Below, in pieces: positions 2,906 to 38,867 of a DNA stretch of 39,736 nucleotides. The position numbers and the translations under genes are program-made. Location: the sequence record PZ379179.1, one strand, 5' to 3'. The DNA comes from a phage. The stretch's first letter is position 1, and every line of letters begins with the position of its first letter. The notes below the pieces were generated by a model that was not told the DNA's origin, did not search any database, and saw only the letters and a program-made list of their open reading frames with translations.

Positions 2906-5587
2906 ATGAGCGTCATCTCTATTGACAAGCACGACTTCTCTGATGTATCGAACGCCATTGAGCCGTTTAACCTACTGGCTGACCACTACGGGCAAGACCT
3001 TGCAGTCAAACAGCTTCAGCTTGAGCACGAGGCATACACTGAAGGCGAGCGACGTTTCATCAAGAACCTTGAGAGACAGACTGAGCGAGGGGAACTGGCA
3101 GACAATCAGGTCGCCAAGCCTTTGATGCAGACTCTGGTCCCTAAGATTGCGCAAGCCGTCAAGGAGTGGCATGAAGGTCCAGACGGGAAGCTGTCAACCT
3201 CTCGTCCGAGCGTAGCGTTCACCATGTTGAGCACTGAAGAGAAGGCCGTAAAGGTCCGCTCTTTGCGCATCTCCTGCGAGTCTGCTGCGGTTATCATACT
3301 GAAGGTCATACTCTCCAAGCTGGTCAAGCCTGAAGGGATACCGATTACACCGATGGCCTCAGCGATAGGTCGCACACTTGAGGACGAAATCCGCTTCGGT
3401 CGCATCCGTGACAAGGAGAAAGAGCACTTCAAGAAGGCGATAGCTGATAACCTGAATAAGCGGGCCGGGGCGTCCTACAAGAAAGCCTACATGCAAGCGG
3501 TCGAGGCATCCATGCTGGAGCAAGGCCAACTGGAAGATGCGTGGGGGACTTGGAGTCCGACCGAGGCTGTCCACGTTGGAATCAAGATGCTGGAGATTGT
3601 CATCCAGTCCACACAACTGGTCGAGCTTAAGCGTTACGGTGCTGGCAATGCAGCGGCTGACGTTGAGATGGTCCACCTGTCAGACTTCTGGGTCAAGAAG
3701 ATGGCACAACGAGGATTCAGCCTTGCGGGTATAGCTCCAGTCTACCAGCCTTGCGTCGTTCCACCTAAGCCGTGGACTGGTGTCGTAGGCGGTGGGTACT
3801 GGGCCAAAGGACGCAGACCATTACCACTGATTCGCTTAGGGTCTAAGTCTGCGGTAGCACGCTACGAAGACGTGTATATGCCTGAAGTCTATGACGCTGT
3901 GAACATCATTCAGAATACACCTTGGAAAGTGAACAAGAAGGTTCTGGAAGTGGTGAACATGGTCGAGAAGCTGAACAACACGCCTATTGATGACATCCCT
4001 CAGATGGAACCGCTGAAGCCTGAGGACTATGCGGGTGAGACTGAAGAAGAACTCAAGGCATGGAAGAAGGCTGCTGCTGGTATCTATCGCCGCGAGAAGG
4101 CCAGACAGTCACGAAGATTGTCACTGAGCTTTATCGTCAACCAAGCGAACAAGTTCTCTCAGTTCAAGGCCATCTGGTTCCCGTATAACATGGACTGGCG
4201 CGGTCGCGTCTACGCTGTGCCGATGTTCAACCCTCAGGGTAACGACATGCAAAAGGGTCTTCTGACTCTGGCAGTCGGTAAGCCTATTGGTGCTGATGGT
4301 TTCAAATGGCTGAAGGTCCACGGTGCAAACTGCGCGGGTGTCGATAAAGTCACCTTCGAGGAGCGTATCAAGTGGGTGGAAGATAACCACGAAAACATCA
4401 TGGCTGCTGCCAAGGCACCGATGGATAGCATTGAGTGGTGGGGCAAGTTAGACTCTCCGTTCTGCTTCCTAGCGTTCTGCTTCGAGTATGCTGGCGTAAT
4501 GCACCACGGCTTGTCTTACTCCTGCTCGCTGCCGATAGCGTTCGATGGGTCCTGCTCTGGGATTCAGCACTTCAGCGCTATGCTTCGCGACCACATCGGT
4601 GGACATGCAGTAAACCTGACGCCATCCGGTAAGGTACAAGACATCTACCGAATTGTGTCTGACCGCATTGAGGAGCAGCTTAAAGTCCTGCTGATTAACG
4701 GTACTGACAACGAGATGGTCACTCACGAGGATAAGAAAACTGGTGAGATTACCGAACGTATCAAGCTGGGGACACGAGAGCTGGCCCGTCAGTGGCTGAC
4801 ATACGGTATGTCACGCAAGGTCACTAAGCGTTCAGTCATGACTCTGGCATACGGGTCGAAAGAGTACGGCTTCGCAGACCAAGTTTACGAGGACATCGTG
4901 ATGCCAGCGATTGACTCAGGGTATGGCGCTATGTTCACCGAGCCAAGCCAAGCGTCTCGATTCATGGCTAAGATGATTTGGGAAGCTGTGAGTGTGACCG
5001 TAGTTGCTGCGGTTGACGCGATGAAGTGGCTTCAAGGTGCTGCCAAGCTGCTGGCTGCTGAAGTGAAGGACAAGAAGACTGGCGAAATCCTGAAGCCATG
5101 CCTTCCGGTACACTGGGTAACACCTGATGGTTTCCCTGTCTGGCAGGAATACCGCAAGAAGGATACCACTCGTCTGAACCTGATGTTCTTAGGGTCATTC
5201 AACCTTCAGCCTACAGTCAACAAAGGAACGAAGAAAGAGCTTGACAAGCACAAGCAGGAGTCAGGCATTAGCCCTAACTTCGTCCACTCACAAGATGGTA
5301 GCCACCTGCGGAAGACTGTAGTCCACACTCACCGCAAGTATGGCGTGATGTCATTCGCAGTGATTCACGATAGCTTCGGGACCATCCCTGCTGACGCTGA
5401 GTATCTGTTCCGTGGTGTCCGTGAGACGATGGTCGAGACATACCGCGATAATGATGTGCTGCTTGACTTCTACGAGCAGTTCGAATACCAGCTTCATGAA
5501 AGTCAGCGCGACAAGTTGCCTGAGCTTCCGAAGAAAGGTAAACTGAATATCGAAGACATCTTGTCTTCAGACTTTGCATTCGCTTAA
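2906..5587 (+). CDS. Single-subunit DNA-directed RNA polymerase (T7 gene 1 homolog)
   Basis: 893 aa; collinear with recalled T7 RNAP, including AFDGSCSGIQHFSAMLRD, VIHDSFGTIPAD and the C-terminal DFAFA. AAGGA RBS 8 nt upstream. Confidence 0.97.
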   Translation: MSVISIDKHDFSDVSNAIEPFNLLADHYGQDLAVKQLQLEHEAYTEGERRFIKNLERQTERGELADNQVAKPLMQTLVPKIAQAVKEWHEGPDGKLSTSRPSVAFTMLSTEEKAVKVRSLRISCESAAVIILKVILSKLVKPEGIPITPMASAIGRTLEDEIRFGRIRDKEKEHFKKAIADNLNKRAGASYKKAYMQAVEASMLEQGQLEDAWGTWSPTEAVHVGIKMLEIVIQSTQLVELKRYGAGNAAADVEMVHLSDFWVKKMAQRGFSLAGIAPVYQPCVVPPKPWTGVVGGGYWAKGRRPLPLIRLGSKSAVARYEDVYMPEVYDAVNIIQNTPWKVNKKVLEVVNMVEKLNNTPIDDIPQMEPLKPEDYAGETEEELKAWKKAAAGIYRREKARQSRRLSLSFIVNQANKFSQFKAIWFPYNMDWRGRVYAVPMFNPQGNDMQKGLLTLAVGKPIGADGFKWLKVHGANCAGVDKVTFEERIKWVEDNHENIMAAAKAPMDSIEWWGKLDSPFCFLAFCFEYAGVMHHGLSYSCSLPIAFDGSCSGIQHFSAMLRDHIGGHAVNLTPSGKVQDIYRIVSDRIEEQLKVLLINGTDNEMVTHEDKKTGEITERIKLGTRELARQWLTYGMSRKVTKRSVMTLAYGSKEYGFADQVYEDIVMPAIDSGYGAMFTEPSQASRFMAKMIWEAVSVTVVAAVDAMKWLQGAAKLLAAEVKDKKTGEILKPCLPVHWVTPDGFPVWQEYRKKDTTRLNLMFLGSFNLQPTVNKGTKKELDKHKQESGISPNFVHSQDGSHLRKTVVHTHRKYGVMSFAVIHDSFGTIPADAEYLFRGVRETMVETYRDNDVLLDFYEQFEYQLHESQRDKLPELPKKGKLNIEDILSSDFAFA

Positions 5588-29396: not shown

Positions 29397-32300
29397 ATGG
29401 CGACTCGTGGTATTCGCAATAACAATCCGGGTAATATCCGGGTAAGTAAGGACCAATGGGAAGGAATGACTGGAGATGATGGCGCATTCGTCACCTTCGA
29501 TAGTCCAGAGTCTGGCGTCCGAGCTTTAGGTAAAAACCTGCTGTCCTACGGTCGCCAAGGTTATGACTCTATCGAGAAGATTATCAACCGATGGGCGCCT
29601 CCTAACGAGAACGACACTAAGGCTTATATTGACTCAGTAGTGGCTGCAACTGGTATTCCAGCTACCCAGAGTCTCGACCTATCGAACCCGGACACCCTGT
29701 CTTCTCTGGCTCAAGCTATTAGCTTCCATGAGACAGGCTCCCGGTACAATCCTGAAGTCTATCAGAAGGGAGTCGAAAGAGCACTTAACGGCATTAGCCC
29801 AAAGACTCCACCAGTAAGCGCTAACGTATTTGACGCACTCACGGAAGGACTCAAGGCTAAACCTAAAGTAGCTCTGGGTGAGAACCTTCCGACCGCTGCT
29901 GGTCTAAACATTGAGGGTCAAGCACCTGAAGCTCCCAACGAATCGTTCGGTGAGATGTTCTATAAGTCTACTGGCGAGACCATGCAGGAACGAGAGGATC
30001 GCTCTACGTGGTTCGGTTTCGGCTCGGCTACAGAAGCTGAAGTGAAGAACTCTATGGTCGGCGTGGCTATCCGCGCTGGTCAGACCGAGGACTCACTTGA
30101 TGTCATTGGCGATGTGTTCAACCCTACCCGCTGGAACAACCATAAGTGGTCTCGTGAGGAGCTGGACCAGATTCGTAACGCTGGAGTTCTCCCTCAGTAT
30201 TACGGTGTCATTACTGGTGGCTCTCCTCAGAACCTGACCGAGCTTATTAACTTGGCGCTTGAGAACCAGAAGTTGGACCAAGAGAAGGCCAAGGCTGGGA
30301 CTGGTGCTCAGCTAGCAGCTGGTGTGATTGGTGCTGGTGTAGACCCGCTGACCTACGTTCCTATCGCTGGACAGGTTGGCAAAGGTGCGAAGCTGGTCAA
30401 CAAGATGTTCGCCGTGGCTGCTCAATCTGGAGCACTTGCTGGTGTATCAGAGATGGCCCGTACCTCAGTGGCTGGTGGGGATGATCATGTGGCTGAAGCT
30501 ATCCTTGGTGGTGCTCTCTTTGGTGCTGGTATGACTACCATCGCTGATGGGTTAGGCAGAGCCTTAGGTCGAAACACTAATGAGTTTGCTGGCCCAGCTA
30601 CACGTCTGGAAGCTCGTGAGACCGCTCGTAACGTTGATGGTCAGGACCTGTCTCGTCTTCCTATTCAGGAAGGTGAGCAGACCTTTAGTCATCAAGGCGT
30701 TAAGTTCGCTGACGTTCAGAACGAGCCGGGTAGTGTACGACTGGAAGATGGTTCAATCCTGATTGGTGAGAACCCTCTGAACCCTAAGACACGTCAAGTC
30801 TTTGACGAAGTGATTGAGCCTGAACGTGCCGCTGCGGGTGTGAACCTTGGTGGGCTGACTGAGATTGGCCTGAAGCTGCTTCGGTCTGAGAACCCTGAGA
30901 TTCGTGGAGTCGCTGCGGACTTAGTGCGTTCACCGACTGGTATGCAGTCCGGGGCCTCAGGTAAAATCGGGACCACTGCGTCAGACGTATTCGAGAGACT
31001 TCGTGCTGTGGACCATCGGTTCTACAACGACATCGACGATGCGGTTACTGAGGCACTAAAGGACCCGTACTTCCAGACAGCATTCTGGCGAGACTCTGGC
31101 GCATTCCGTCAGGACATCTACCAGCGTGTGTCTATGGCTATCGAAGATGGTAGCGGAAACCTGAAGGCTGAACTGACTCCGGGAGAACTGAAAGTCTATG
31201 ACCTACTGAAGAACCAGTTTGACGCCAAGCGTGAGATGATGGAGAACCCAGCGATGTTTGGTCGCCCAGACGCTAAGTCTATCTTTCCGGGCAGCCGCTT
31301 CAAGGGAACATACGTCCCGCATGTGTATAGCAACCAGATGAAGGAGCTGTACATCAAGGAGCTTGGGAGGCCAGAGGCACTACAGGAGGCCATCAAGAAG
31401 TCATGGTTGACCAGCTATGCGTCTCGACCTGAAGTCAAGAAACGTGTGGACGAGGCACTCTTAGAGGCTGACCCTACGTTGACTCCAGAAGGACTTGCGG
31501 CTGCGGTCGATAAGTACGCCAACGATAAGGCTTATGGTATCTCTCACACCGAGCAGTTCGAGCGTTCATCCATAATGGAAGAGAACATCAATGGTCTGGT
31601 GGGTCTGGAGAACAACAGCTTCCTTGAGGCTCGTAACCTGTTCGATAGCGATATGTCAATCGTCCTACCTAACGGTCAGACCTTCAGTGTCAACAACCTG
31701 CGTGAGTGGGACATGGACAAGATTGTCCCGGCCTACAACCGTCGAGTTAATGGCGATATTGCTATCATGGCTGGTACAGGCAAGACCACGAAGGACATGA
31801 AGGACTTGGTTGAGACCCTGATGAACAAGGCTGGGGATGACGGTAAGTTGAAAGGTGAAGTATCTACCTTACGTGGCACTTTGAAGATTCTAACTGGTCG
31901 TGCTCGACGTGATGGTGCTGATGATGCGGCCTTCGCTACCGTGATGCGCACAATGACAGACCTATCGTTCTTCGCTAAGAATGCCTACATGGGTGTTCAG
32001 AACTTAACGGAGATTGGTGGTATGCTGGCTCGTGGTAACGTTCGTGCAATGCTTCATGGAGTCCCAATTTTCCGTGACCTAGCATTCCGTAACAAGAAGG
32101 TTGGGGCCTCAGAGATTAAGGACCTGCACAATGTTATCTTCGGTAAGGAACTGGATGACTCAATCCGTCCGTCTAAACAGGATGTCATTGACCGTCTGCG
32201 ATCTTACAGTGACCTCGGTCGTGGTACAGCTACAGCTCTTGGGACTGCCAAGTATTACACTGGCGAACTTGCAGTACGCTCTCCGTTCACTAAAGTCCTC

Positions 32301-33284
32301 AACGGTACGACCAACTACCTGTTAGATGCTGGACGTCAAGGCTTCCTGTCTGACATCGTGGAGCACAGCCTGACTGGTAGTAAGCGTAAGTTCGATGACC
32401 GCTGGCTGAAGACCGCTGGTATCTCTGACGAGCAGTGGAAGGGCATTAAGTCCCTAATCCGTGAGTCAGTGACTCGTGGTCCAGACGGGAAGTACACCAT
32501 CAAGGATAAGAAGGCGTTCAGTCAGGACCCAAGGGCTATGGACCTGTGGCGTATGGGTGACACCATCGCTGACGAAACGTTACTCCGGCCCCACAAGCTG
32601 TCAAACATGGACGCCAAGGCTTATGGTCCTCTCGCTAAGACTGTCCTTCAGTTTAAGAACTTCGTCATCAAGTCTATCAATGGGAGAACCATGCGAACCT
32701 TCTATAACGCCACGAAGAACAACAGAGCGATTGACGCTGCACTGTCGACCGTGATGTCTATGGGTCTGGCTGGTATCTACTACATGGCTCAGGCGCATGT
32801 CAAGGCTTATGCTATGCAGGATGGTCGAGACCGTGACTACCTTAAGCAAGCTCTGGACCCAACGATGATTGGCTATGCGGTCCTGTCCCGTAGTTCACAT
32901 CTTGGTGGCCCACTTGGGGTAGCTAACATTCTGGGGGGCATCGCTGGGTATGAGGACACTAAGATGCTCCGTTCGTCTATCCTACCTCGTTCGCCTACAG
33001 AGAAGCCTGAGCGTGCCATCGCGTATGGTGCAGCTACAAGTGACCCTGTGATGAATGTTGTTGGTAACTTCTTGGAGCAGGTTCCAGCTTTCGGATATGC
33101 TGCTAACGTTGGCGCTTCGGCTTACAACTTGGCTGGCTACCTCAAGGCTGATACTCGTGTCAACGAGCGTGACTACATGACCGGGATGTATAATACGTTC
33201 CGTGAACTGGTTCCGAACGACCCAATTACCCAGAAGCTGCTGCTTGGAACGTTTGAGGAGCAAGGCATCCACATCAAGGACTAA
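29397..33284 (+). CDS. Internal virion protein D (T7 gp16 homolog) with divergent N-terminal domain
   Basis: 1295 aa; from about residue 200 collinear with T7 gp16 (TWFGFGSATEAE, RWN.H.W..EELD.IR, GVDPLTYVP, MRLEARETARN, SPTGMQSGASGK, GTYVPHVY, NNSFLEARNLFDSD). The first ~130 aa (MATRGIRNNNPGNIR...) do not resemble the T7 lytic-transglycosylase N-terminus as I recall it. Confidence 0.93.
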   Translation: MATRGIRNNNPGNIRVSKDQWEGMTGDDGAFVTFDSPESGVRALGKNLLSYGRQGYDSIEKIINRWAPPNENDTKAYIDSVVAATGIPATQSLDLSNPDTLSSLAQAISFHETGSRYNPEVYQKGVERALNGISPKTPPVSANVFDALTEGLKAKPKVALGENLPTAAGLNIEGQAPEAPNESFGEMFYKSTGETMQEREDRSTWFGFGSATEAEVKNSMVGVAIRAGQTEDSLDVIGDVFNPTRWNNHKWSREELDQIRNAGVLPQYYGVITGGSPQNLTELINLALENQKLDQEKAKAGTGAQLAAGVIGAGVDPLTYVPIAGQVGKGAKLVNKMFAVAAQSGALAGVSEMARTSVAGGDDHVAEAILGGALFGAGMTTIADGLGRALGRNTNEFAGPATRLEARETARNVDGQDLSRLPIQEGEQTFSHQGVKFADVQNEPGSVRLEDGSILIGENPLNPKTRQVFDEVIEPERAAAGVNLGGLTEIGLKLLRSENPEIRGVAADLVRSPTGMQSGASGKIGTTASDVFERLRAVDHRFYNDIDDAVTEALKDPYFQTAFWRDSGAFRQDIYQRVSMAIEDGSGNLKAELTPGELKVYDLLKNQFDAKREMMENPAMFGRPDAKSIFPGSRFKGTYVPHVYSNQMKELYIKELGRPEALQEAIKKSWLTSYASRPEVKKRVDEALLEADPTLTPEGLAAAVDKYANDKAYGISHTEQFERSSIMEENINGLVGLENNSFLEARNLFDSDMSIVLPNGQTFSVNNLREWDMDKIVPAYNRRVNGDIAIMAGTGKTTKDMKDLVETLMNKAGDDGKLKGEVSTLRGTLKILTGRARRDGADDAAFATVMRTMTDLSFFAKNAYMGVQNLTEIGGMLARGNVRAMLHGVPIFRDLAFRNKKVGASEIKDLHNVIFGKELDDSIRPSKQDVIDRLRSYSDLGRGTATALGTAKYYTGELAVRSPFTKVLNGTTNYLLDAGRQGFLSDIVEHSLTGSKRKFDDRWLKTAGISDEQWKGIKSLIRESVTRGPDGKYTIKDKKAFSQDPRAMDLWRMGDTIADETLLRPHKLSNMDAKAYGPLAKTVLQFKNFVIKSINGRTMRTFYNATKNNRAIDAALSTVMSMGLAGIYYMAQAHVKAYAMQDGRDRDYLKQALDPTMIGYAVLSRSSHLGGPLGVANILGGIAGYEDTKMLRSSILPRSPTEKPERAIAYGAATSDPVMNVVGNFLEQVPAFGYAANVGASAYNLAGYLKADTRVNERDYMTGMYNTFRELVPNDPITQKLLLGTFEEQGIHIKD

Positions 33285-33302
33285 ACTATCACTATAGGAA
33301 AC
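33280..33302 (+). promoter_or_regulatory. Phage RNAP promoter (phi17-like)
   Basis: ACTAAACTATCACTATAGGAAAC; the gp16 stop TAA is embedded in the promoter. Confidence 0.7.
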
Positions 33303-33348
33303 GGGAGGCGCTACCATAGGTCTCCCTTTAAATCACAAAGGAGGCATA

Positions 33349-35529
33349 ATGTCCACGATTACACAATTCCCTTCAGGAAACACTCAGTACAGGATTGAGT
33401 TCGACTACCTAGCCAGAACGTTTGTTGTTGTTACGCTGGTGAATAGCTCTAACCCTACCCTGAACCGTGTACTGGAAGTTGGTCGAGATTACCGATTCCT
33501 TAATCCAACGATGATTGAGATGTTGGCTGACCAATCAGGTTTCGACATCGTTCGTATTCACCGTCAGACTGGAACTGACTTAGTGGTAGACTTCAGGAAT
33601 GGCTCAGTGTTGACGGCTAGTGACCTGACAAATTCAGAGCTTCAGGCTATCCATATTGCAGAAGAAGGTCGAGACCAAACGGTTGACTTAGCGAAGGAAT
33701 ATGCCGATGCTGCTGGTAGCTCTGCTGGCAACGCTAAGGATAGCGAGGACGAAGCACGCCGAATCGCTGCGAGTATCAAGGCAGCTGGTAAAATTGGCTA
33801 TATTACCCGTCGCTCCTTCGAGAAAGGCTTCAACGTTACAACATGGAACGAGGTCCTGCTATGGGAAGAGGATGGTGATTATTACCGCTGGGATGGTACA
33901 CTTCCAAAGAACGTTCCCGCTGGTTCAACTCCTGAATCATCTGGTGGTATTGGGCTGAGTGCGTGGGTTAGTGTTGGGGATGCGTCACTTAGAGCAAACC
34001 TGTCTGATAGTGATGGCGCTAAATACATAGGCAGTGGAGAAAGGACATTACTTGAGCACAGCAATGATGTTTTGCACTCAAAAGACTTTCCAACACTGCA
34101 GGCAGCTATAGATGCATCTTTGCAAAAAAATGATCTACTGGTGTCTCCTGGCAATTATACTGAAAAAGTTACTATTGGAAACGCGCAGTTAAAAGGTGTT
34201 GGCGGGGCCGCGGTACTAAAAACTCCGGCAGACTTTACAAACACTGTTCAGGTTAATTTAGCTACACCTCATTGGCAATTCCGCCATAGTGGTGGTTTTG
34301 CTATAGATGGTTCCGGGACAACCGGAGCCGTAGGTATTAGTTTTGACCCGTCAGACCAATATTCCGGACGTCATAATTTTAGTGATGTATACATCCACAA
34401 CATCAACAAGGCCCTTCAGAAGCCTTCCGGGAACATCGGCAATACTTGGAGAAATATTGGGATATCTACGTGTGATTGGGGGTATTACGCGATTAGTGGC
34501 TCAGAGACGCATTGCGGGGCCGATACCCTCTACAATATCCACTTCGATGGCATCTCCACCTATGCAGTCTATCTAGACGGCACTGTCGATAATGGCGGGG
34601 TGGGCGCATGGTGGCTTAAAGACTCCATTATTGAGGCTTCCGGAGGTGGCGGGATATACTTAAAAAGTAAATCGGGCGACTGTCCTACATCTCCATGCGG
34701 GGTATCCAATATATGGATGGAAGCTATCGCAACATCACCGGCTGTTCAGGTAGACGGCGTGGCGCAAAAACCGCGAGTTCTCAAGTTGGTAGACACAGCG
34801 ATATTCTTTGCTGAGTATTCTTATCTCAACAACATCGAGCTATCCAACTCCAACTTAGTAACTTATGGTTGCCGTTTTGACAACGCTGATGGCAATCAGG
34901 ATATTGTCGTGGATGCACAAAGTACCATTGTAGCCCATGACGTGTATTTAAACGGCAGTTCTGGAAAGGACGTTATTGTGGAGTCCGTAGCATCGCAATC
35001 TGCAACGATAGCTGCCACAAACTTATCTCTGAGGGGCAACTTAACAAGAGGGAGAGTATTTAATACGCCGACAGGGAATAAATTAATGGCTATCACATTT
35101 GACTCAGGTAGCCATTATTTTTCTGGCAGCGGCACCGTTAACGGTTCGACTGTATCTGACGGACTTCACTCCGCTACATGTACCGAATTTTCATTCCCCG
35201 GAGCCGGTTTATATGAAATGGGAGCGACAAGAACAGCCATTACATCCGGTAGATGGTACGTGTGGGGAGTTAACTCACGCCTACAATCTGGCTCGGCGGA
35301 TATTAGTATAACGTCAGGTATTACCATGGGTAGTGTTTACACAAAGCCGGGGGAGTGGATTAGCACTTTCGGTGTAGGAAAGGCATCTACCACTGGCACT
35401 GTAGCGCTATACGTTTCCACAGGAGGAGGTTCGGGAGCTACGGTCAGATTCAGTGACTTTTTCATCGCTGAGTTTACGACGCAAGCTCAGGCTTTAGCTT
35501 TCGCCAATTCAAGGATGTCGTTATCATAA
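33349..35529 (+). CDS. Tail fibre / tailspike: T7 gp17-like N-terminal anchor fused to a beta-helix (depolymerase-like) C-terminal domain
   Basis: 726 aa; N-terminus (EFDYLARTFVVVTLVN, DYRF, LVVDFRNGSVLTASDL, AIHIAEEGRDQTV) matches the T7 gp17 tail-attachment domain. From about nt 34000 codon usage becomes AT-rich and the protein shows Gly/Asn/Ser-rich repeats typical of right-handed beta-helix tailspikes. Confidence 0.9.
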   Translation: MSTITQFPSGNTQYRIEFDYLARTFVVVTLVNSSNPTLNRVLEVGRDYRFLNPTMIEMLADQSGFDIVRIHRQTGTDLVVDFRNGSVLTASDLTNSELQAIHIAEEGRDQTVDLAKEYADAAGSSAGNAKDSEDEARRIAASIKAAGKIGYITRRSFEKGFNVTTWNEVLLWEEDGDYYRWDGTLPKNVPAGSTPESSGGIGLSAWVSVGDASLRANLSDSDGAKYIGSGERTLLEHSNDVLHSKDFPTLQAAIDASLQKNDLLVSPGNYTEKVTIGNAQLKGVGGAAVLKTPADFTNTVQVNLATPHWQFRHSGGFAIDGSGTTGAVGISFDPSDQYSGRHNFSDVYIHNINKALQKPSGNIGNTWRNIGISTCDWGYYAISGSETHCGADTLYNIHFDGISTYAVYLDGTVDNGGVGAWWLKDSIIEASGGGGIYLKSKSGDCPTSPCGVSNIWMEAIATSPAVQVDGVAQKPRVLKLVDTAIFFAEYSYLNNIELSNSNLVTYGCRFDNADGNQDIVVDAQSTIVAHDVYLNGSSGKDVIVESVASQSATIAATNLSLRGNLTRGRVFNTPTGNKLMAITFDSGSHYFSGSGTVNGSTVSDGLHSATCTEFSFPGAGLYEMGATRTAITSGRWYVWGVNSRLQSGSADISITSGITMGSVYTKPGEWISTFGVGKASTTGTVALYVSTGGGSGATVRFSDFFIAEFTTQAQALAFANSRMSLS

Positions 35530-35673
35530 AAACAACCTCAGCCGAATCGGGTTATTTATCATCAGAACGGTATTGAATCATCGAAGGTTGTGGAGGTAGA
35601 GGCTAACTACACGTTGACCAACGTATGATAACAACTTTGGGTCACGGACGACCCGCTTTAAACTGGAGGTTTT

Positions 35674-35868
35674 ATGATTGAGTTAGACTTCAAGAATGAG
35701 GTCCTCAAAGCCTCGCCTATCGTCGGGACCGCTGCGGCTGATGGTGCCAGTCGGTTCTTCTTTGGGCTAACGCTCAACGAATGGTTCTACGTCGCTGCTA
35801 TCGCGTACACCGTGGTGCAGATTGGCGTCCTAATTTACAAGACGATTAAGAGCGGAGGTAAGACATGA
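35674..35868 (+). CDS. Class II holin (T7 gp17.5 homolog)
   Basis: 64 aa; FFGLTLNEWFYVAAIAYTVVQIG matches T7 holin FFGLSLNEWFYVAAIAYTVVQIG. Confidence 0.9.
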   Translation: MIELDFKNEVLKASPIVGTAAADGASRFFFGLTLNEWFYVAAIAYTVVQIGVLIYKTIKSGGKT

Positions 35869-36128
35869 CGCAGATGGACTTAGAGAAGTTCCTGTTAATG
35901 CTGGACACAGAACGTGCTAGACTAATGCTGCAAGACCTGCGGGATGACTCTAAGCGTTCGCCCCAGCTCTACAACGCCATTGAGAAGCTACTGGCTCGTC
36001 ACAACTTCGTGCTAAGCAAGGTGTCTGTTGACGAGAAGACGCTCGCTGATATGGAGGCCCTGAACGCAGAGTACGATAAGGTGCTCTCCGCTACGGAAGA
36101 TAATGACACAGGGTATGGTGTTCAATAA
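35865..36128 (+). CDS. Terminase small subunit / DNA maturation protein A (gp18-like)
   Basis: 87 aa ORF between holin and spanin with overlapping start; assigned by position and size. Confidence 0.65.
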   Translation: MTQMDLEKFLLMLDTERARLMLQDLRDDSKRSPQLYNAIEKLLARHNFVLSKVSVDEKTLADMEALNAEYDKVLSATEDNDTGYGVQ

Positions 36129-36130
36129 GT

Positions 36131-36171
36131 GTTAGACTCAAGGTCATCGTCAGGTGGCCTTTATGGTTAAC
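36131..36171 (+). ncRNA. Candidate RNase III processing hairpin (R18.5-like)
   Basis: GTTAGACTCAAGGTCATCGTCAGGTGGCCTTTATGGTTAAC, the third copy of the element at 6144 and 13375; at the position of T7 R18.5. Confidence 0.45.
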
Positions 36172-36224
36172 ACTAACTAGTGGAGGAGACTCTACGTGAA
36201 ATCTGATAAACCGGGAGGGCAACT

Positions 36225-36671
36225 ATGCTCGAATTTTTAAAGAGAGCGGCTCCGTGGTTACTTTCAGCAGTGATATTTGCTGGTGGCTACCACACCGCTA
36301 ACAATAAGTGGGAGGCTAAGGTCAATGCAGAATACACCTCGAATCTTAAGGCATCGGAGGATACAAGACTTGCTGTCCAAGCTGAAGTCAACAAAGTGTC
36401 CAAACGGTTTCAGGACGAAATGTCCTCGCTGGAAGGCAGCACTGATAGGATTATTGCTGACCTTCAGTCTGACAATAAGCGGTTGCGCATCCGAGTCAAA
36501 CCTACGAGTGGAACCACGCAAAGTGACGGTCGATGCGTCATTGATGGTTACGCCGAACTTGACGAACGAGATGCTAAACGTCTTATCGCCATCGGAGTGA
36601 AAGGAGACAAATGGATTAAGGCGCTTCAGGACACTGTGAGAGCCTTGCAGCAAGATAAGGAGGCCCAATGA
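36225..36671 (+). CDS. i-spanin, Rz-like (T7 gp18.5 homolog)
   Basis: 148 aa; MLEFLKRAAPWLL...LEGSTDRIIADLQSDNKRLRIRVK...LDERDAKRLIA...GDKWIKALQDTVRALQ matches T7 gp18.5; N-terminal TM segment. Confidence 0.9.
   Translation: MLEFLKRAAPWLLSAVIFAGGYHTANNKWEAKVNAEYTSNLKASEDTRLAVQAEVNKVSKRFQDEMSSLEGSTDRIIADLQSDNKRLRIRVKPTSGTTQSDGRCVIDGYAELDERDAKRLIAIGVKGDKWIKALQDTVRALQQDKEAQ
36325..36600 (+). CDS. o-spanin, Rz1-like lipoprotein embedded in the +1 frame of the i-spanin gene
   Basis: Track ORF 36277..36600 in an alternative frame inside gp18.5; contains a lipobox-like LTISGC after a hydrophobic stretch LIGLLLTFS. Start uncertain (first ATG at 36325). Confidence 0.45.
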   Translation: MQNTPRILRHRRIQDLLSKLKSTKCPNGFRTKCPRWKAALIGLLLTFSLTISGCASESNLRVEPRKVTVDASLMVTPNLTNEMLNVLSPSE

Positions 36672-37108
36672 TGCTCAGTGATTCGTATGTCTATGATGAG
36701 TCCAGTAAGTCTGGCCTGAAGTCCCTGCGTTCTGGTAAGGACGTGGGGTGTGTGGGAAACCACGGGTATTATCAGGTAGGAACTCGACGTCATGGACTCC
36801 TACTGGCCCATAGAGTCGTCTGGGAACTAACCCACGGTCCTATACCAGAAGGTATGGAGATTGACCATATTGACCGCTGCCGGACTAACAACAGGCTGGA
36901 CAACCTCCGGCTAGTTACTTCAAGCGAGAACTCCTGCAACACCTCAGGACATTCTGACTCAAAGACTGGAGTTAAGAACATATCGTTCCATCAGAATGGC
37001 TACGCTATCGAGGTCATGCGTAAGGGAGTCCGTATGCGAACAACACGTCCTACTTTAGAGGAGGCTATCTCTGTCCGGGACCTAATGCTGGAGGGACTCT
37101 ATGTCTAA
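36668..37108 (+). CDS. HNH homing-type endonuclease (copy B, paralog of 7708..8118)
   Basis: 146 aa; [13 protein letters not shown]...[41 protein letters not shown], about 60% identical to copy A across the core. Overlaps the gp18.5 stop and the terminase start. Confidence 0.8.
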
Positions 37109-38867
37109 GAAAACACCTGCTGAAAGACAGGCTGAAATGACCCAAAGGATGAGGGACGACTTCGTGTTCTTCATCTTCGTTCTCTGGAAAGCTCTTAGCC
37201 TTCCGGTTCCAACCCGCTGCCAGATAGATATGTGTAAGAAGCTGGCTGCTGGGGATAATCGCCGCTTCATCCTTCAGGCTTTCCGTGGTATTGGTAAGTC
37301 GTTTCTGACCTGTGGTTTCGTGGTCTGGAAGCTATGGAACAACCCAGACTTGAAGTTCATGATTGTGTCGGCCTCAAAGGAACGAGCTGATGCTAACTCC
37401 ATCTTCATCAAGCGAATCATCGACCTCATGCCTCAGCTTCAGGAACTCAAACCTAAGCAGGGACAGCGAGATGCGGTTATCAGCTTCGACGTTGGTCCCG
37501 CCAAGCCAGACCACTCACCTTCGGTTAAGTCCGTTGGTATCACTGGTCAGTTGACTGGTAGTCGTGCTGACATCCTGATTGCTGATGACGTGGAGGTTCC
37601 GAACAACTCAGCGACTCAGGCTGCCCGGGACCGTCTGTCAGAGCTTGTGAAAGAGTTCGACGCTATCCTGAAGCCTGGAGGTACAATCATCTATCTGGGT
37701 ACTCCTCAGAACGAGATGACCCTATACCGTGAGCTGGAAGGTCGTGGGTACACCACTACTATCTGGCCCGCTCGTTATCCACGCGACAGGAAGGACTGGC
37801 AGTCTTACGGCGACCGTCTGGCTCCTATGCTTCAGGCAGAGCTGGAAGAGGACCCTGAGTCCTTCTACTGGCGTCCGACTGATGAAGTACGCTTCGATGA
37901 TACGGACCTGAAGGAACGTGAGCTGTCCTACGGTAAAGCTGGCTTCGCTCTACAGTTCATGCTTAACCCTAACCTGAGTGATGCCGAGAAGTACCCTCTG
38001 AAGCTCCGTGACCTTATCGTAGCAGACTTGGACCCAGCGTCTAGCCCAATGGTCTACCAATGGCTTCCTAACCCTCAGAACAAGCGTGAGGACGTTCCTA
38101 ACGTTGGACTCATGGGTGACTCGTACCACACGTATCAGACTGTAGGCTCTGCCTTCAGCGCGTACACTCAGAAGATTCTGGTCATTGACCCTAGTGGTCG
38201 TGGTAAGGATGAGACTGGCTACGCTGTTCTGTACCAGCTCAACGGCTACATCTTCGTGATGGAAGCTGGTGGTATGCGCGGTGGGTATGAGGACTCTACG
38301 CTGGAAGCACTGGCTAAGATTGGTCGTAAGTGGAAGGTCAACGAATACGTCATTGAGGGTAACTTCGGTGATGGTATGTACCTTGAGCTATTCAAGCCTG
38401 TAGCGGCCCGTATACATCCTGCTGCTGTAACTGAAGTGAAGAGTAAGGGTCAGAAAGAACTCCGCATCTGTGACGTTCTGGAGCCTATCATGGGGTCTCA
38501 CCGACTTATCGTCAACGCTGCTGCTATCGTCCAAGACTACCAGTCGGCCTCTGATAAGGATGGTGTTCGTAACCCTATCTACTCTCTCTTCTACCAGATG
38601 ACACGTATCTCTCGTGAACGTGGAGCCTTGGCACACGATGACAGACTTGATGCTCTGGCTATCGGTGTACAGTTCTTCGTTGAGTCTATGGCTAAGGATG
38701 CCAACAAAGGCGAACGTGAAGTCACTGAGGAGTGGCTGGAGGAACAGATGGAGAACCCACGGAAAGGCTTCGAGTCCATCCACACTGAGTTCTGGGACAA
38801 TGGGGTCCGGGTGACTCACGATACGGACGACGAGCTGGGACTAGGGTCCTACGTTACGTTCCACTAG
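37101..38867 (+). CDS. Terminase large subunit / DNA maturation protein B (T7 gene 19 homolog)
   Basis: 588 aa; Walker A-like [10 protein letters not shown], ATPase and nuclease regions; position and size match T7 gp19. GGAGGGA RBS. Confidence 0.95.

Follow-up and report, generated by a model that had tools for sequence, protein, structure and literature searches.

The gene at positions 33349 to 35529 encodes the tailspike with which an LM33_P1-type T7-like coliphage (Kayfunavirus) binds its receptor, and the protein is a three-part mosaic, consisting of a T7 gp17 anchor, a Tail_spike_N domain and an exchangeable receptor-binding module (residues 216–726). The chimera is real, and is shown directly by homology breakpoints; the decisive evidence for it is comparative, together with codon usage. 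Overall, this is probably the single receptor-binding tailspike of an LM33_P1-species Kayfunavirus, with a module acquired at a hinge, which as a homotrimer would bind the O25b O-antigen and cleave it hydrolytically. The features identified in the window (the whole stretch of DNA that was analysed, 39,736 nucleotides, record PZ379179.1) are as follows:

33285..33302, + strand: phage RNA-polymerase promoter-like element ACTATCACTATAGGAAAC, directly 5' of the gene (motif matches).
33338..33344, + strand: Shine-Dalgarno sequence AAGGAGG, 4 nt 5' of the ATG (read from the sequence).
33349..35529, + strand: tailspike or 'tail fibre' gene (gp17 orthologue), 726 amino acids (ORF list, PHROG, nucleotide identity).
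33349..33696, + strand: T7 gp17-like tail-attachment (anchor) domain, residues 1–116 (Pfam PF03906, PDB).
33697..33798, + strand: Ala/Glu/Asp-rich linker, residues 117–150 (between two Pfam domains).
33799..33981, + strand: Tail_spike_N domain (CBA120 TSP1/gp66-type N-terminal domain), residues 151–211 (Pfam PF18668, PDB, AF2).
33979..34062, + strand: flexible hinge, residues 211–238, containing the recombination junction (AF2 pLDDT, homology ends).
33994..35579, no strand assigned: exchanged cassette, DNA absent from Kayfunaviruses of other specificity (blastn, codon usage).
34063..35043, + strand: N-terminal cap helices and right-handed parallel beta-helix, residues 239–565, with conserved acidic residues.
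35077..35526, + strand: C-terminal beta-sandwich (CBM-like) domain, residues 577–726 (AF2, Foldseek).

The 726-residue open reading frame occupies exactly 33349–35529 on the + strand, and its product matches PHROG 27367 over its full length (1319 bits). Its nucleotide identity to BOX15_gp44 of LM33_P1 is 99.2% (99.1% for the anchor DNA, 99.2% for the module DNA), and the encoded LM33_P1 tail fibre Gp17 (YP_009324518.1, Kayfunavirus LM33P1) has equal length, genomic position, neighbours and junctions. The two proteins are identical at 715 of 726 residues, with 10 of the 11 substitutions located at residues 219–630, in the receptor-binding module. The surrounding backbone is only ∼96% identical to that of LM33_P1-type phages, and the window holds an additional HNH endonuclease gene, which LM33_P1 lacks. 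The same gp17 gene is found in eleven more deposited genomes, at 95.6–99.2% identity.

Its location is that expected of a T7 gp17-type gene in the late region, after the large internal virion protein, the counterpart of gene 16, and before the holin and terminase. The upstream neighbour encodes 1295 residues, and its LM33_P1 annotation is that of an internal virion protein with an endolysin domain; the downstream genes correspond in the same annotation to a holin, a small terminase and an Rz-like spanin. The promoter-like element at 33285..33302 lies within backbone DNA common to other Kayfunaviruses, and is one of ten + strand matches in the window (≤3 mismatches; 0.03 expected by chance), all of which have ACTATCACT(A/G)TAGG in common. 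No convincing intrinsic terminator was found right behind the gene; the terminator-like site nearest to its 3' end (35468–35490) is within the ORF, and has a weak T tail.

A preliminary description of this DNA had assigned the N-terminal ∼200 residues to the tail-attachment domain of T7 gp17. This homology is real, but encompasses only ∼116 residues, while residues 151–211 form a Tail_spike_N domain. The Pfam family Phage_T7_tail (PF03906) matches residues 10–115 (59.9 bits, gathering cut-off 25.2), covering only positions 16–115 of the 157-position profile. T7 gp17 chains from the PDB (7boz, 8dsp, 8e4g) align to residues 6–116 only, with E=3e-16, and no T7 gp17 homology was found past this N-terminal domain. 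The linker is overlapped only at its start, by a sub-threshold low-complexity LEA_4 match (residues 104–132). Tail_spike_N (PF18668) is matched at residues 151–211 (70.2 bits, cut-off 25), CBA120 TSP1, TSP3 and TSP4 chains from the PDB align to residues 145–230, and this region adopts a small all-beta domain in the AF2 model, with pLDDT values of 83–92. Since the T7 gp17 match is limited to residues 6–116, and the rest consists of Tail_spike_N and a beta-helix, the protein is a tailspike and not a T7-like fibre.

The AF2 pLDDT is below 50 across the hinge (model residues 67–94), and the recombination junction lies between codons 215 and 216 (...SLR before it, ANLSD... after it), precisely where the Tail_spike_N domain ends. 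Three Kayfunaviruses of other specificity, vB_EcoP_F, PE3-1 and IMEP24, possess a gp17 with the same anchor (95–97% nucleotide identity over the first 636–645 nt), and share the upstream promoter region and downstream genes of the phage studied here. Compared to these by blastn, homology is lost at 33984–33993 and resumes at 35580–35592, with 95–97% identity outside the cassette; for these three phages, it is excluded that 33994–35579 is common DNA. Their C-terminal modules (annotated 'lyase' in PE3-1) are unrelated or only distantly related: that of IMEP24 has 37% amino-acid identity, while vB_EcoP_F, to which homology stops at nt 636 of the gene, carries a K1F-type endosialidase beta-propeller. 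A second set of breakpoints is provided by the siphovirus Golestan, whose tailspike is 87.8% identical over 34012–35531. Golestan-like identity begins at ∼33996–34012 and Kayfunavirus identity stops at 33993, so the two breakpoints are sharp, ∼20 nt or less apart. The right end of the exchanged module is located ∼50 nt past the stop codon. The proposal of the preliminary description that the receptor-binding module has been exchanged is therefore borne out, both by the breakpoints and by the identity to the Golestan tailspike.

It could be argued that there is no chimera, and that the break is ordinary compositional noise within a vertically inherited gene. Anchor and module indeed show no significant difference in GC (0.486 and 0.467, Fisher p=0.43) or GC3 (0.440 and 0.433, Fisher p=0.87), and GC3 has no significant change point within the gene in a single-split test (permutation p=0.35). 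On these grounds, I reject a step in GC or GC3 at the junction; none is seen because GC3 is low over the entire gene. However, the amino-acid-normalised codon score, which is ∼0 for the backbone, differs between residues 1–215 (−0.064) and residues 216–726 (−0.231; t-test p=6e-5). The change point in codon usage is best placed after codon 203 (nt 33958), at the place where a break had been proposed, and codon usage is atypical throughout the exchanged cassette (z = −6.7). This codon-usage break refutes the noise explanation, as do the sharp breakpoints relative to three Kayfunaviruses and a Kagunavirus, and the occurrence of the module behind unrelated anchors; its probability is close to nil.

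The other compositional claims of the preliminary description stand in part. The codon usage of the N-terminal part resembles that of the backbone only incompletely, its GC3 of 0.44 ranking at the ∼1st percentile among backbone windows and its codon-score z being −2.3. The AT-rich string cited in support of a compositional turn is present, at 34018–34056, and belongs to a local trough at codons 226–345 (GC3 0.308, against a minimum of 0.350 for backbone windows of the same length), but this is not sustained, as GC3 recovers to 0.62 by codons 351–400. Low GC3 at codons 226–345 followed by high GC3 at codons 346–500 is a pattern intrinsic to the module, also seen in the Golestan and P22-like copies. 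The Golestan tailspike shows a plain step between anchor (GC3 0.545) and module (0.437), and in the P22-like prophage copy the module (GC3 0.37) is in line with the neighbouring genes.

A tblastn search located the module in 42 deposited phage records, among them phages of the Kagunavirus, ES17/myPSH and Bp4/PD38 types. It is fused to T7_tail and PF18668 (726 residues), to PF18668 alone (661 residues), to the P22-type head-binding domain PF09008 (644 residues, in a prophage beside an integrase), and in an 842-residue and other architectures. The boundary at residues 211–216 also serves PF09008, PF18668 and further anchors. Since at least four other types of anchor precede the same module in unrelated phages, the module was gained through recombination at the hinge. 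Tailspike modularity with conserved recombination motifs at the anchor end has been described (Witte et al. 2023, PMC10408124); the text of that paper does not mention LM33_P1, Golestan or O25.

The Kagunavirus tailspikes (VB_EcoS-Golestan ORF30, phiEc3/phiEc4, 22664BS2, fEg-Eco06) share the module from residue 216 to the stop (87.8% nucleotide and 88–91% amino-acid identity), but these siphoviruses have a different anchor of ∼150 residues, lacking the T7 gp17 domain; a resemblance between Golestan ORF30 and the LM33_P1 fibre has been noted (PMC7203180). The exchange had been called recent, which holds only in relative terms: the chimera is a fixed feature of at least 12 deposited LM33_P1-like genomes, and the DNA of the closest copy outside the Kayfunaviruses is ∼12% different. 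A homologous module is also present in the ES17 tail fibre protein (ES17-TFP; also in myPSH1131 and myPSH2311), at 63.7% amino-acid identity over residues 218–725. ES17-TFP is the best structural match in BFVD (query-normalised TM 0.84), but has 1021 residues, belongs to a podovirus of 75 kb and differs in its N-terminal half. ST131 strains are also among the targets of ES17. Purified ES17-TFP bound heparan sulfate on glycan arrays, not LPS (PMC7885116); among the characterised relatives, ES17-TFP is the closest to the module, and its binding counts against the O25b reading.

The E. coli chromosomes that match the host flank of the P22-like prophage copy, at 100% or 99.9% identity, include strains labelled O25b:H4-ST131, which indirectly supports an O25b receptor. 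A blastn search (distant mode) of 5,426 complete E. coli genomes gave no match to the module, and the GTDB species-representative genomes contained no relative; the prophage-based serotype assignment therefore relies on one short-read contig.

As for the fold, the preliminary description had proposed a right-handed beta-helix tailspike on the basis of Gly/Asn/Ser-rich repeats. The composition agrees: Gly+Asn+Ser account for 29.2% of the C-terminal part, compared to 18.6% for backbone proteins, and no backbone window exceeds 24.3%. Self-BLASTP of the module, however, shows only the diagonal; any repetition is structural, in the coils of the beta-helix. The fold itself is confirmed: a confident model and strong matches to solved tailspikes identify a right-handed parallel beta-helix (pectin-lyase-like). 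The C-terminal domain consists of long antiparallel strands (pLDDT 92–98), which Foldseek matches to CBM22 and a porphyran-binding CBM (target-normalised TM 0.58–0.61), and is the part that varies most among homologues. The fold matches include the CBA120 TSPs, Sf6, HK620 and LKA1. P22, Sf6, HK620 and CBA120 TSP1–4 share the layout of the protein, namely a particle-binding N-terminus followed by a hinge, then the right-handed beta-helix, with a beta domain at the C-terminus, and the CBA120 TSPs also have Tail_spike_N in common with it. Similarity in the beta-helix to P22, Sf6, HK620 and the CBA120 TSPs is undetectable in sequence, with 9–17% identity in structural alignments; for Sf6, P22 and HK620 the identity is ∼10–13%. 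The AF2 model is that of a monomer; by analogy, I infer a homotrimer.

Neither residues 216–726 (even at E≤10) nor residues 577–726 alone match any Pfam or NCBIfam family. HMMs for Pectate_lyase_3, Beta_helix, Pectinesterase and other Pfam beta-helix enzyme families gave no match, and the Pfam domains of the K1F gp17 type (endosialidase beta-propeller, Peptidase_S74 chaperone) were not found. Beyond the anchor domains, searches of the PDB by sequence and profile returned only a marginal pectinesterase (8tne, E=0.11), at the helix cap. No transferable catalytic motif was found in the module. A set of acidic residues along the helix (D392, D425, E429, E458, D482, E489, D511, D514, D522) is strongly conserved in homologues down to 33% identity, with D392, D425, E458, E489 and D522 spaced by 31–33 residues.

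The receptor was proposed to be a surface polysaccharide, capsule or O-antigen, and this fits the known hosts. LM33, the isolation strain of LM33_P1, is ST131-O25b:H4 (PMC5434335). Three Kayfunaviruses (22664BS1, 101136BS1, 101118UKE1) and a Kagunavirus (22664BS2) were isolated on O25b-positive strains, the podovirus 22664BS1 and the siphovirus 22664BS2 on one and the same strain (PMC8614997). All four carry the module. LM33_P1 is reportedly strictly O25b-specific and LPS-dependent. Counting against an O25b receptor, the record of one module-bearing phage, vB_EcoP_LNA5, gives the rough K-12 MG1655 as host. Papers citing the LM33_P1 work gave no detail on its receptor or on depolymerase activity.

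The module might alternatively be a capsule (K-antigen) depolymerase and not an O-antigen enzyme. Sister phages do bear capsule enzymes on the same anchor, such as the K1 endosialidase of vB_EcoP_F, depolymerases for Klebsiella and Acinetobacter capsules are numerous among the fold neighbours, and the ES17 homologue has been compared with K5 lyase (PMC7885116). However, what the isolation hosts are documented to have in common is O25b. ST131 strains possess several different K types, which further argues against a capsule substrate, as does the reported O25b restriction and LPS dependence of LM33_P1, and I regard this alternative as very unlikely.

Depolymerase activity on the O25b O-antigen is plausible but no more than an inference, as neither an enzyme family nor catalytic residues could be assigned; no report of enzyme activity for LM33_P1 gp17 was found within the searchable literature. 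The beta-helix could also bind the O-antigen without cleaving it. It would then be a reversible adhesin whose role is to position the phage, the LPS layer being penetrated otherwise. This is rather unlikely, as the O-antigen tailspikes of characterised structure among the fold matches (CBA120 TSPs, Sf6, HK620, LKA1) are nearly all enzymes, and the conservation of the acidic residues down to 33% identity exceeds what binding of different glycans would be expected to demand.

The O25B repeat unit is composed of two Glc, two Rha (one of them 2-O-acetylated) and one GlcNAc (PMC9516715). This reported unit contains no uronic acid, and a lyase mechanism was therefore set aside; should the tailspike act on the O25b O-antigen, it would more likely be a hydrolase than a lyase. 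The acetylated rhamnose (PMC9516715) also raises the case of an O-acetyl esterase, which would remove the 2-O-acetyl group of the O25b rhamnose and leave the backbone uncut. Weak 'pectinesterase' similarities, to PDB 8tne (E=0.11) and in a reported CDD match (PMC7885116), go in this direction. However, that to 8tne spans profile positions 138–205, the N-terminal cap motif of the helix, and the catalytic region is not covered. Known deacetylating tailspikes have SGNH-type domains. None was detected in the module, and an esterase is highly improbable.

The preferred reading is thus a hydrolytic O-antigen tailspike. In this protein, the T7 gp17-type domain (residues 1–116) plugs the tailspike into the tail, and the beta-helix would bind the O25b O-antigen of ST131-type E. 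coli. The tailspike would then cleave the O25b polysaccharide, allowing the virion to move down to the outer membrane, as for the P22, Sf6 and HK620 tailspikes. Cleavage would be hydrolytic (endoglycosidase) and not by beta-elimination, and the acidic ladder D392, D425/E429, E458, E489, D511/D514, D522 is a candidate binding or catalytic groove. Because residues 216–726 have no Pfam, NCBIfam or solved-structure sequence relative, they could represent an uncharacterised O25b-specific glycoside-hydrolase family, and could also bind mammalian heparan sulfate like the ES17 relative; I consider this combination an outside chance.

The chimera itself is ordinary, and has already been described for the LM33_P1-type phage species. 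Conceptually nothing is new here, as Kayfunavirus tailspike chimerism, the likeness to Golestan and ES17, and horizontal module exchange are all in the literature. The tailspike gene determines which E. coli the phage attacks, and phages of the LM33_P1 type are candidates for therapy against ST131-O25b:H4, a pandemic multidrug-resistant clone. The exact module borders (hinge codons 211–216; right end ∼50 nt past the stop) serve host-range engineering by module swaps, and the conserved acidic ladder offers concrete targets for the question of an O25b endoglycosidase. If true, heparan-sulfate binding would give the phage a dual specificity, for bacterial and host-mucosa glycans.

The open reading frame under study encodes the single receptor-binding tailspike of the phage, judging from its position, domains and fold, and its coordinates in the preliminary description proved exact. 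The region comprises the following features:

33285–33302, + strand: phage-polymerase promoter-like element, 5' of the tailspike frame
33300–33330: inverted repeat GGGAG...CTCCC, just 3' of the promoter
33349–35529, + strand: tailspike, 726 codons, from the ORF listing
35640–35656: inverted repeat GGGTC-ACGGAC-GACCC, 5' of the holin gene
36668–37108, + strand: HNH endonuclease, 146 aa (Pfam HNH_3, E=1.9e-21)

The promoter-like element has 10 + strand copies in the window, against a chance expectation of 0.03, and a strong Shine-Dalgarno sequence lies closely 5' of the tailspike ATG. The gene is preceded by that of a 1295-aa internal virion protein, and the LM33_P1 annotation places a holin, a small terminase and an Rz-like spanin 3' of it. 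The short GC-rich inverted repeats, located in the intergenic regions on both sides of the gene, may form hairpins for RNA processing or pausing, and a search for intrinsic terminators called neither of them.

The tailspike gene shows 99.2% DNA identity to the tail fibre gene of Escherichia phage LM33_P1 (Kayfunavirus LM33P1), and 95.6–99.1% identity to ten more deposited genomes. As the window also shows ∼96% identity to LM33_P1-type phages over its first 25 kb, it corresponds to a further isolate of a known phage species. Eighteen nucleotide differences separate the gene from LM33_P1 gp17, and 11 of these alter an amino acid; 10 of the 11 differing residues (out of 726) are found after residue 216 (aa 219–630), in the receptor-binding module. 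This amino-acid-changing share is high for so close a pair, with counts too few for a selection test. Together with the next 144 nt, the gene forms an island of 99–100% identity to LM33_P1 in a surrounding backbone of ∼96%. Identity is patchy across 30349–38700, with some 200-nt bins at 100%, 30400–30599 at 90%, and 33000–33199 (the 3' end of the internal virion protein gene) at 84.5%, suggesting frequent recombination between close relatives. The HNH frame follows the Rz-like spanin and precedes the large terminase, in a position where LM33_P1 shows a gap of ∼430 nt, and the start of the terminase gene (37200–37399) is only 83.5% identical to LM33_P1, against 95–99% for most of the remainder. 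The locus has the appearance of a homing-endonuclease insertion accompanied by a co-conversion tract.

At the level of sequence comparison, the evidence that the tailspike is a chimera is decisive. I compared it to three Kayfunaviruses of other specificity, IMEP24, vB_EcoP_F (K1 endosialidase) and PE3-1, which show 95–97% identity from 5' of the gene through 33984–33993. Similarity is nil past this point, and returns at 35580–35592, ∼50–60 nt beyond the stop codon. In turn, 34012–35531 matches a siphovirus tailspike gene, that of VB_EcoS-Golestan (Kagunavirus), at 87.8% identity. In a multiple alignment, the Kayfunavirus identity ends at ...GATGCGTCACTTAGA (codon 215, ...SLR), and the Golestan-like identity begins no more than a few codons past codon 215 (ANLSDSDGAKYIGSGER). 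The proposed exchange is thus borne out by homology breakpoints, but its description as recent calls for caution, since the chimera is fixed across the LM33_P1 species and the closest foreign copy of the module is ∼12% diverged overall.

For codon usage, each codon was scored by its log-probability given the synonymous usage of the backbone, with normalisation for each amino acid. The score is −0.064 for aa 1–215 and −0.231 for aa 216–726, with the backbone at about 0 (p=6e-5), and the best change point falls after codon 203 (nt 33958), where a compositional break had been claimed. The accompanying turn to AT-rich sequence is real but local: GC3 is 0.308 at codons 226–345, below every backbone window of equal size, and rises to 0.56–0.62 across codons 346–450, while the gene halves do not differ (GC 0.486 vs 0.467, p=0.43; GC3 0.440 vs 0.433, p=0.87). 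For the whole gene GC3 is 0.435, compared to 0.551 for the backbone; this is the lowest among the long genes of the window, with just one short ORF (87 aa) lower. The N-terminal part, too, is therefore not fully backbone-like, contrary to what had been proposed for its codon usage. Its match to T7 gp17 is confined to aa 6–116 rather than ∼200 residues, and aa 151–211 make up a distinct domain, Tail_spike_N (PF18668), of a type that is N-terminal in CBA120 tailspikes. The C-terminal part is enriched in Gly, Asn and Ser (29.2% vs 18.6%), but possesses no sequence-level repeats. The initial observation is partly confirmed, and its interpretation is supported.

I modeled aa 145–726 with AlphaFold2, using an alignment of 40 sequences (mean pLDDT 89.4, pTM 0.79). 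The model consists of four regions:

Tail_spike_N: small beta domain
aa 211–238: disordered hinge, which holds the junction
aa about 261–565: cap helices, then a long run of short strands
aa 577–726: C-terminal domain of long antiparallel strands

The top Foldseek matches in the PDB are CBA120 TSP4/3/1, the Klebsiella K2-2 TSP, the Sf6 TSP and other tailspikes, and, with the model itself, confirm the predicted beta-helix fold. The last 150 residues match carbohydrate-binding modules such as CBM22 (target-normalised TM about 0.6). Sequence searches of Pfam, NCBIfam and the PDB with the module found no relative, and the fold, as modelled, gives no clue to its chemistry.

A search of 5.8 billion proteins identified the module in several architectures, including:

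726 aa: T7_tail and PF18668 anchor
661 aa: PF18668 alone as anchor
644 aa: P22 head-binding domain (PF09008)
842 aa: further proteins, with several other architectures besides

In most of these, similarity starts at query residues 211–216, identifying the hinge as a common module boundary. By tblastn, 42 deposited phage records carry a member of the family, among them podoviruses of the ES17/myPSH and Bp4/PD38 types. No match was found in 5,426 complete RefSeq E. coli genomes, and no relative in 185,579 GTDB species representatives; despite these absences, lytic phage isolates commonly carry the module, and raw sequencing data contain it in P22-like prophages. One record, MZ417522.1 (Mycolicibacterium phage J1, 25 kb), encodes a 70%-identical copy of module aa 218–591, and is probably mislabelled or contaminated.

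The PF09008-anchored copy lies in a prophage, with an adjacent integrase and yfdC-mlaA-fadL next to it. The GC3 profile along the module is alike in the Kayfunavirus, Kagunavirus and P22-like copies. Golestan shows an obvious step between anchor (0.545) and module (0.437), whereas in the P22-like prophage the module agrees with its low-GC3 neighbours; these patterns point, without proving it, to an origin in a temperate-phage gene pool. DNA identity is highest in the central helix (aa 301–550; 90–95% for the Golestan copy, 85–94% for the P22-like copy), with the cap and C-terminal domain far more diverged, indicating sub-module recombination too. Two IMG/VR viral contigs (L017 and L018, both 4001–4642) show 52% identity confined to aa ∼510–723, chiefly the C-terminal beta-sandwich, which may be a separately exchangeable unit.

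Isolation hosts and the prophage flank provide indirect evidence on the receptor, consistent with O25b. Strain LM33 is ST131-O25b:H4 (PMC5434335). Four phages that carry the module, the Kagunavirus 22664BS2 and three Kayfunaviruses (22664BS1, 101136BS1 and 101118UKE1), all come from isolation on O25b-positive strains (PMC8614997). ES17, which likewise targets ST131 (PMC7885116), carries a 64%-identical module. Chromosomal sequence flanking the P22-like prophage copy matches several E. coli chromosomes at 100% identity, and strains labelled O25b:H4-ST131 at 99.9%. The LM33_P1 paper is said to describe strict O25b specificity and LPS dependence. A 98.6% nt-identical tailspike is found in vB_EcoP_LNA5 (MZ311861.1), whose stated host, the rough E. 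coli K-12 MG1655, is hard to reconcile with an O-antigen-dependent receptor; this entry may be a metadata default, or the spike may be dispensable on rough strains.

The spike, presumably a trimer, would bind the O25b O-antigen along its helix and then, most likely, cleave it. Since the reported O25B unit is neutral, without uronic acid (PMC9516715), hydrolysis is likelier than beta-elimination. Across 40 homologues (33–91% identity), nine acidic residues show conservation of at least 93%, and D392, D425, E458, E489 and D522 are spaced every 31–33 residues, a spacing that may place these five on successive coils. Alternatives to such an O-antigen-cleaving spike are one that only binds, a capsule depolymerase, or an O-acetyl esterase.

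The LM33_P1 gene itself is already published, as are the resemblance between the LM33_P1 fibre and Golestan ORF30 (PMC7203180), the relationship between ES17, LM33_P1, Golestan and myPSH (PMC7885116), and the finding that Kayfuna-, Kaguna- and Kutterviruses exchange their receptor-binding domains horizontally at conserved anchor-end motifs (PMC10408124). The chimeric tailspike is thus a correct but ordinary finding, already known. To this, the present analysis adds nucleotide-level boundaries and a codon-usage change point, together with candidate active-site residues and a confident fold model whose C-terminal domain is CBM-like.
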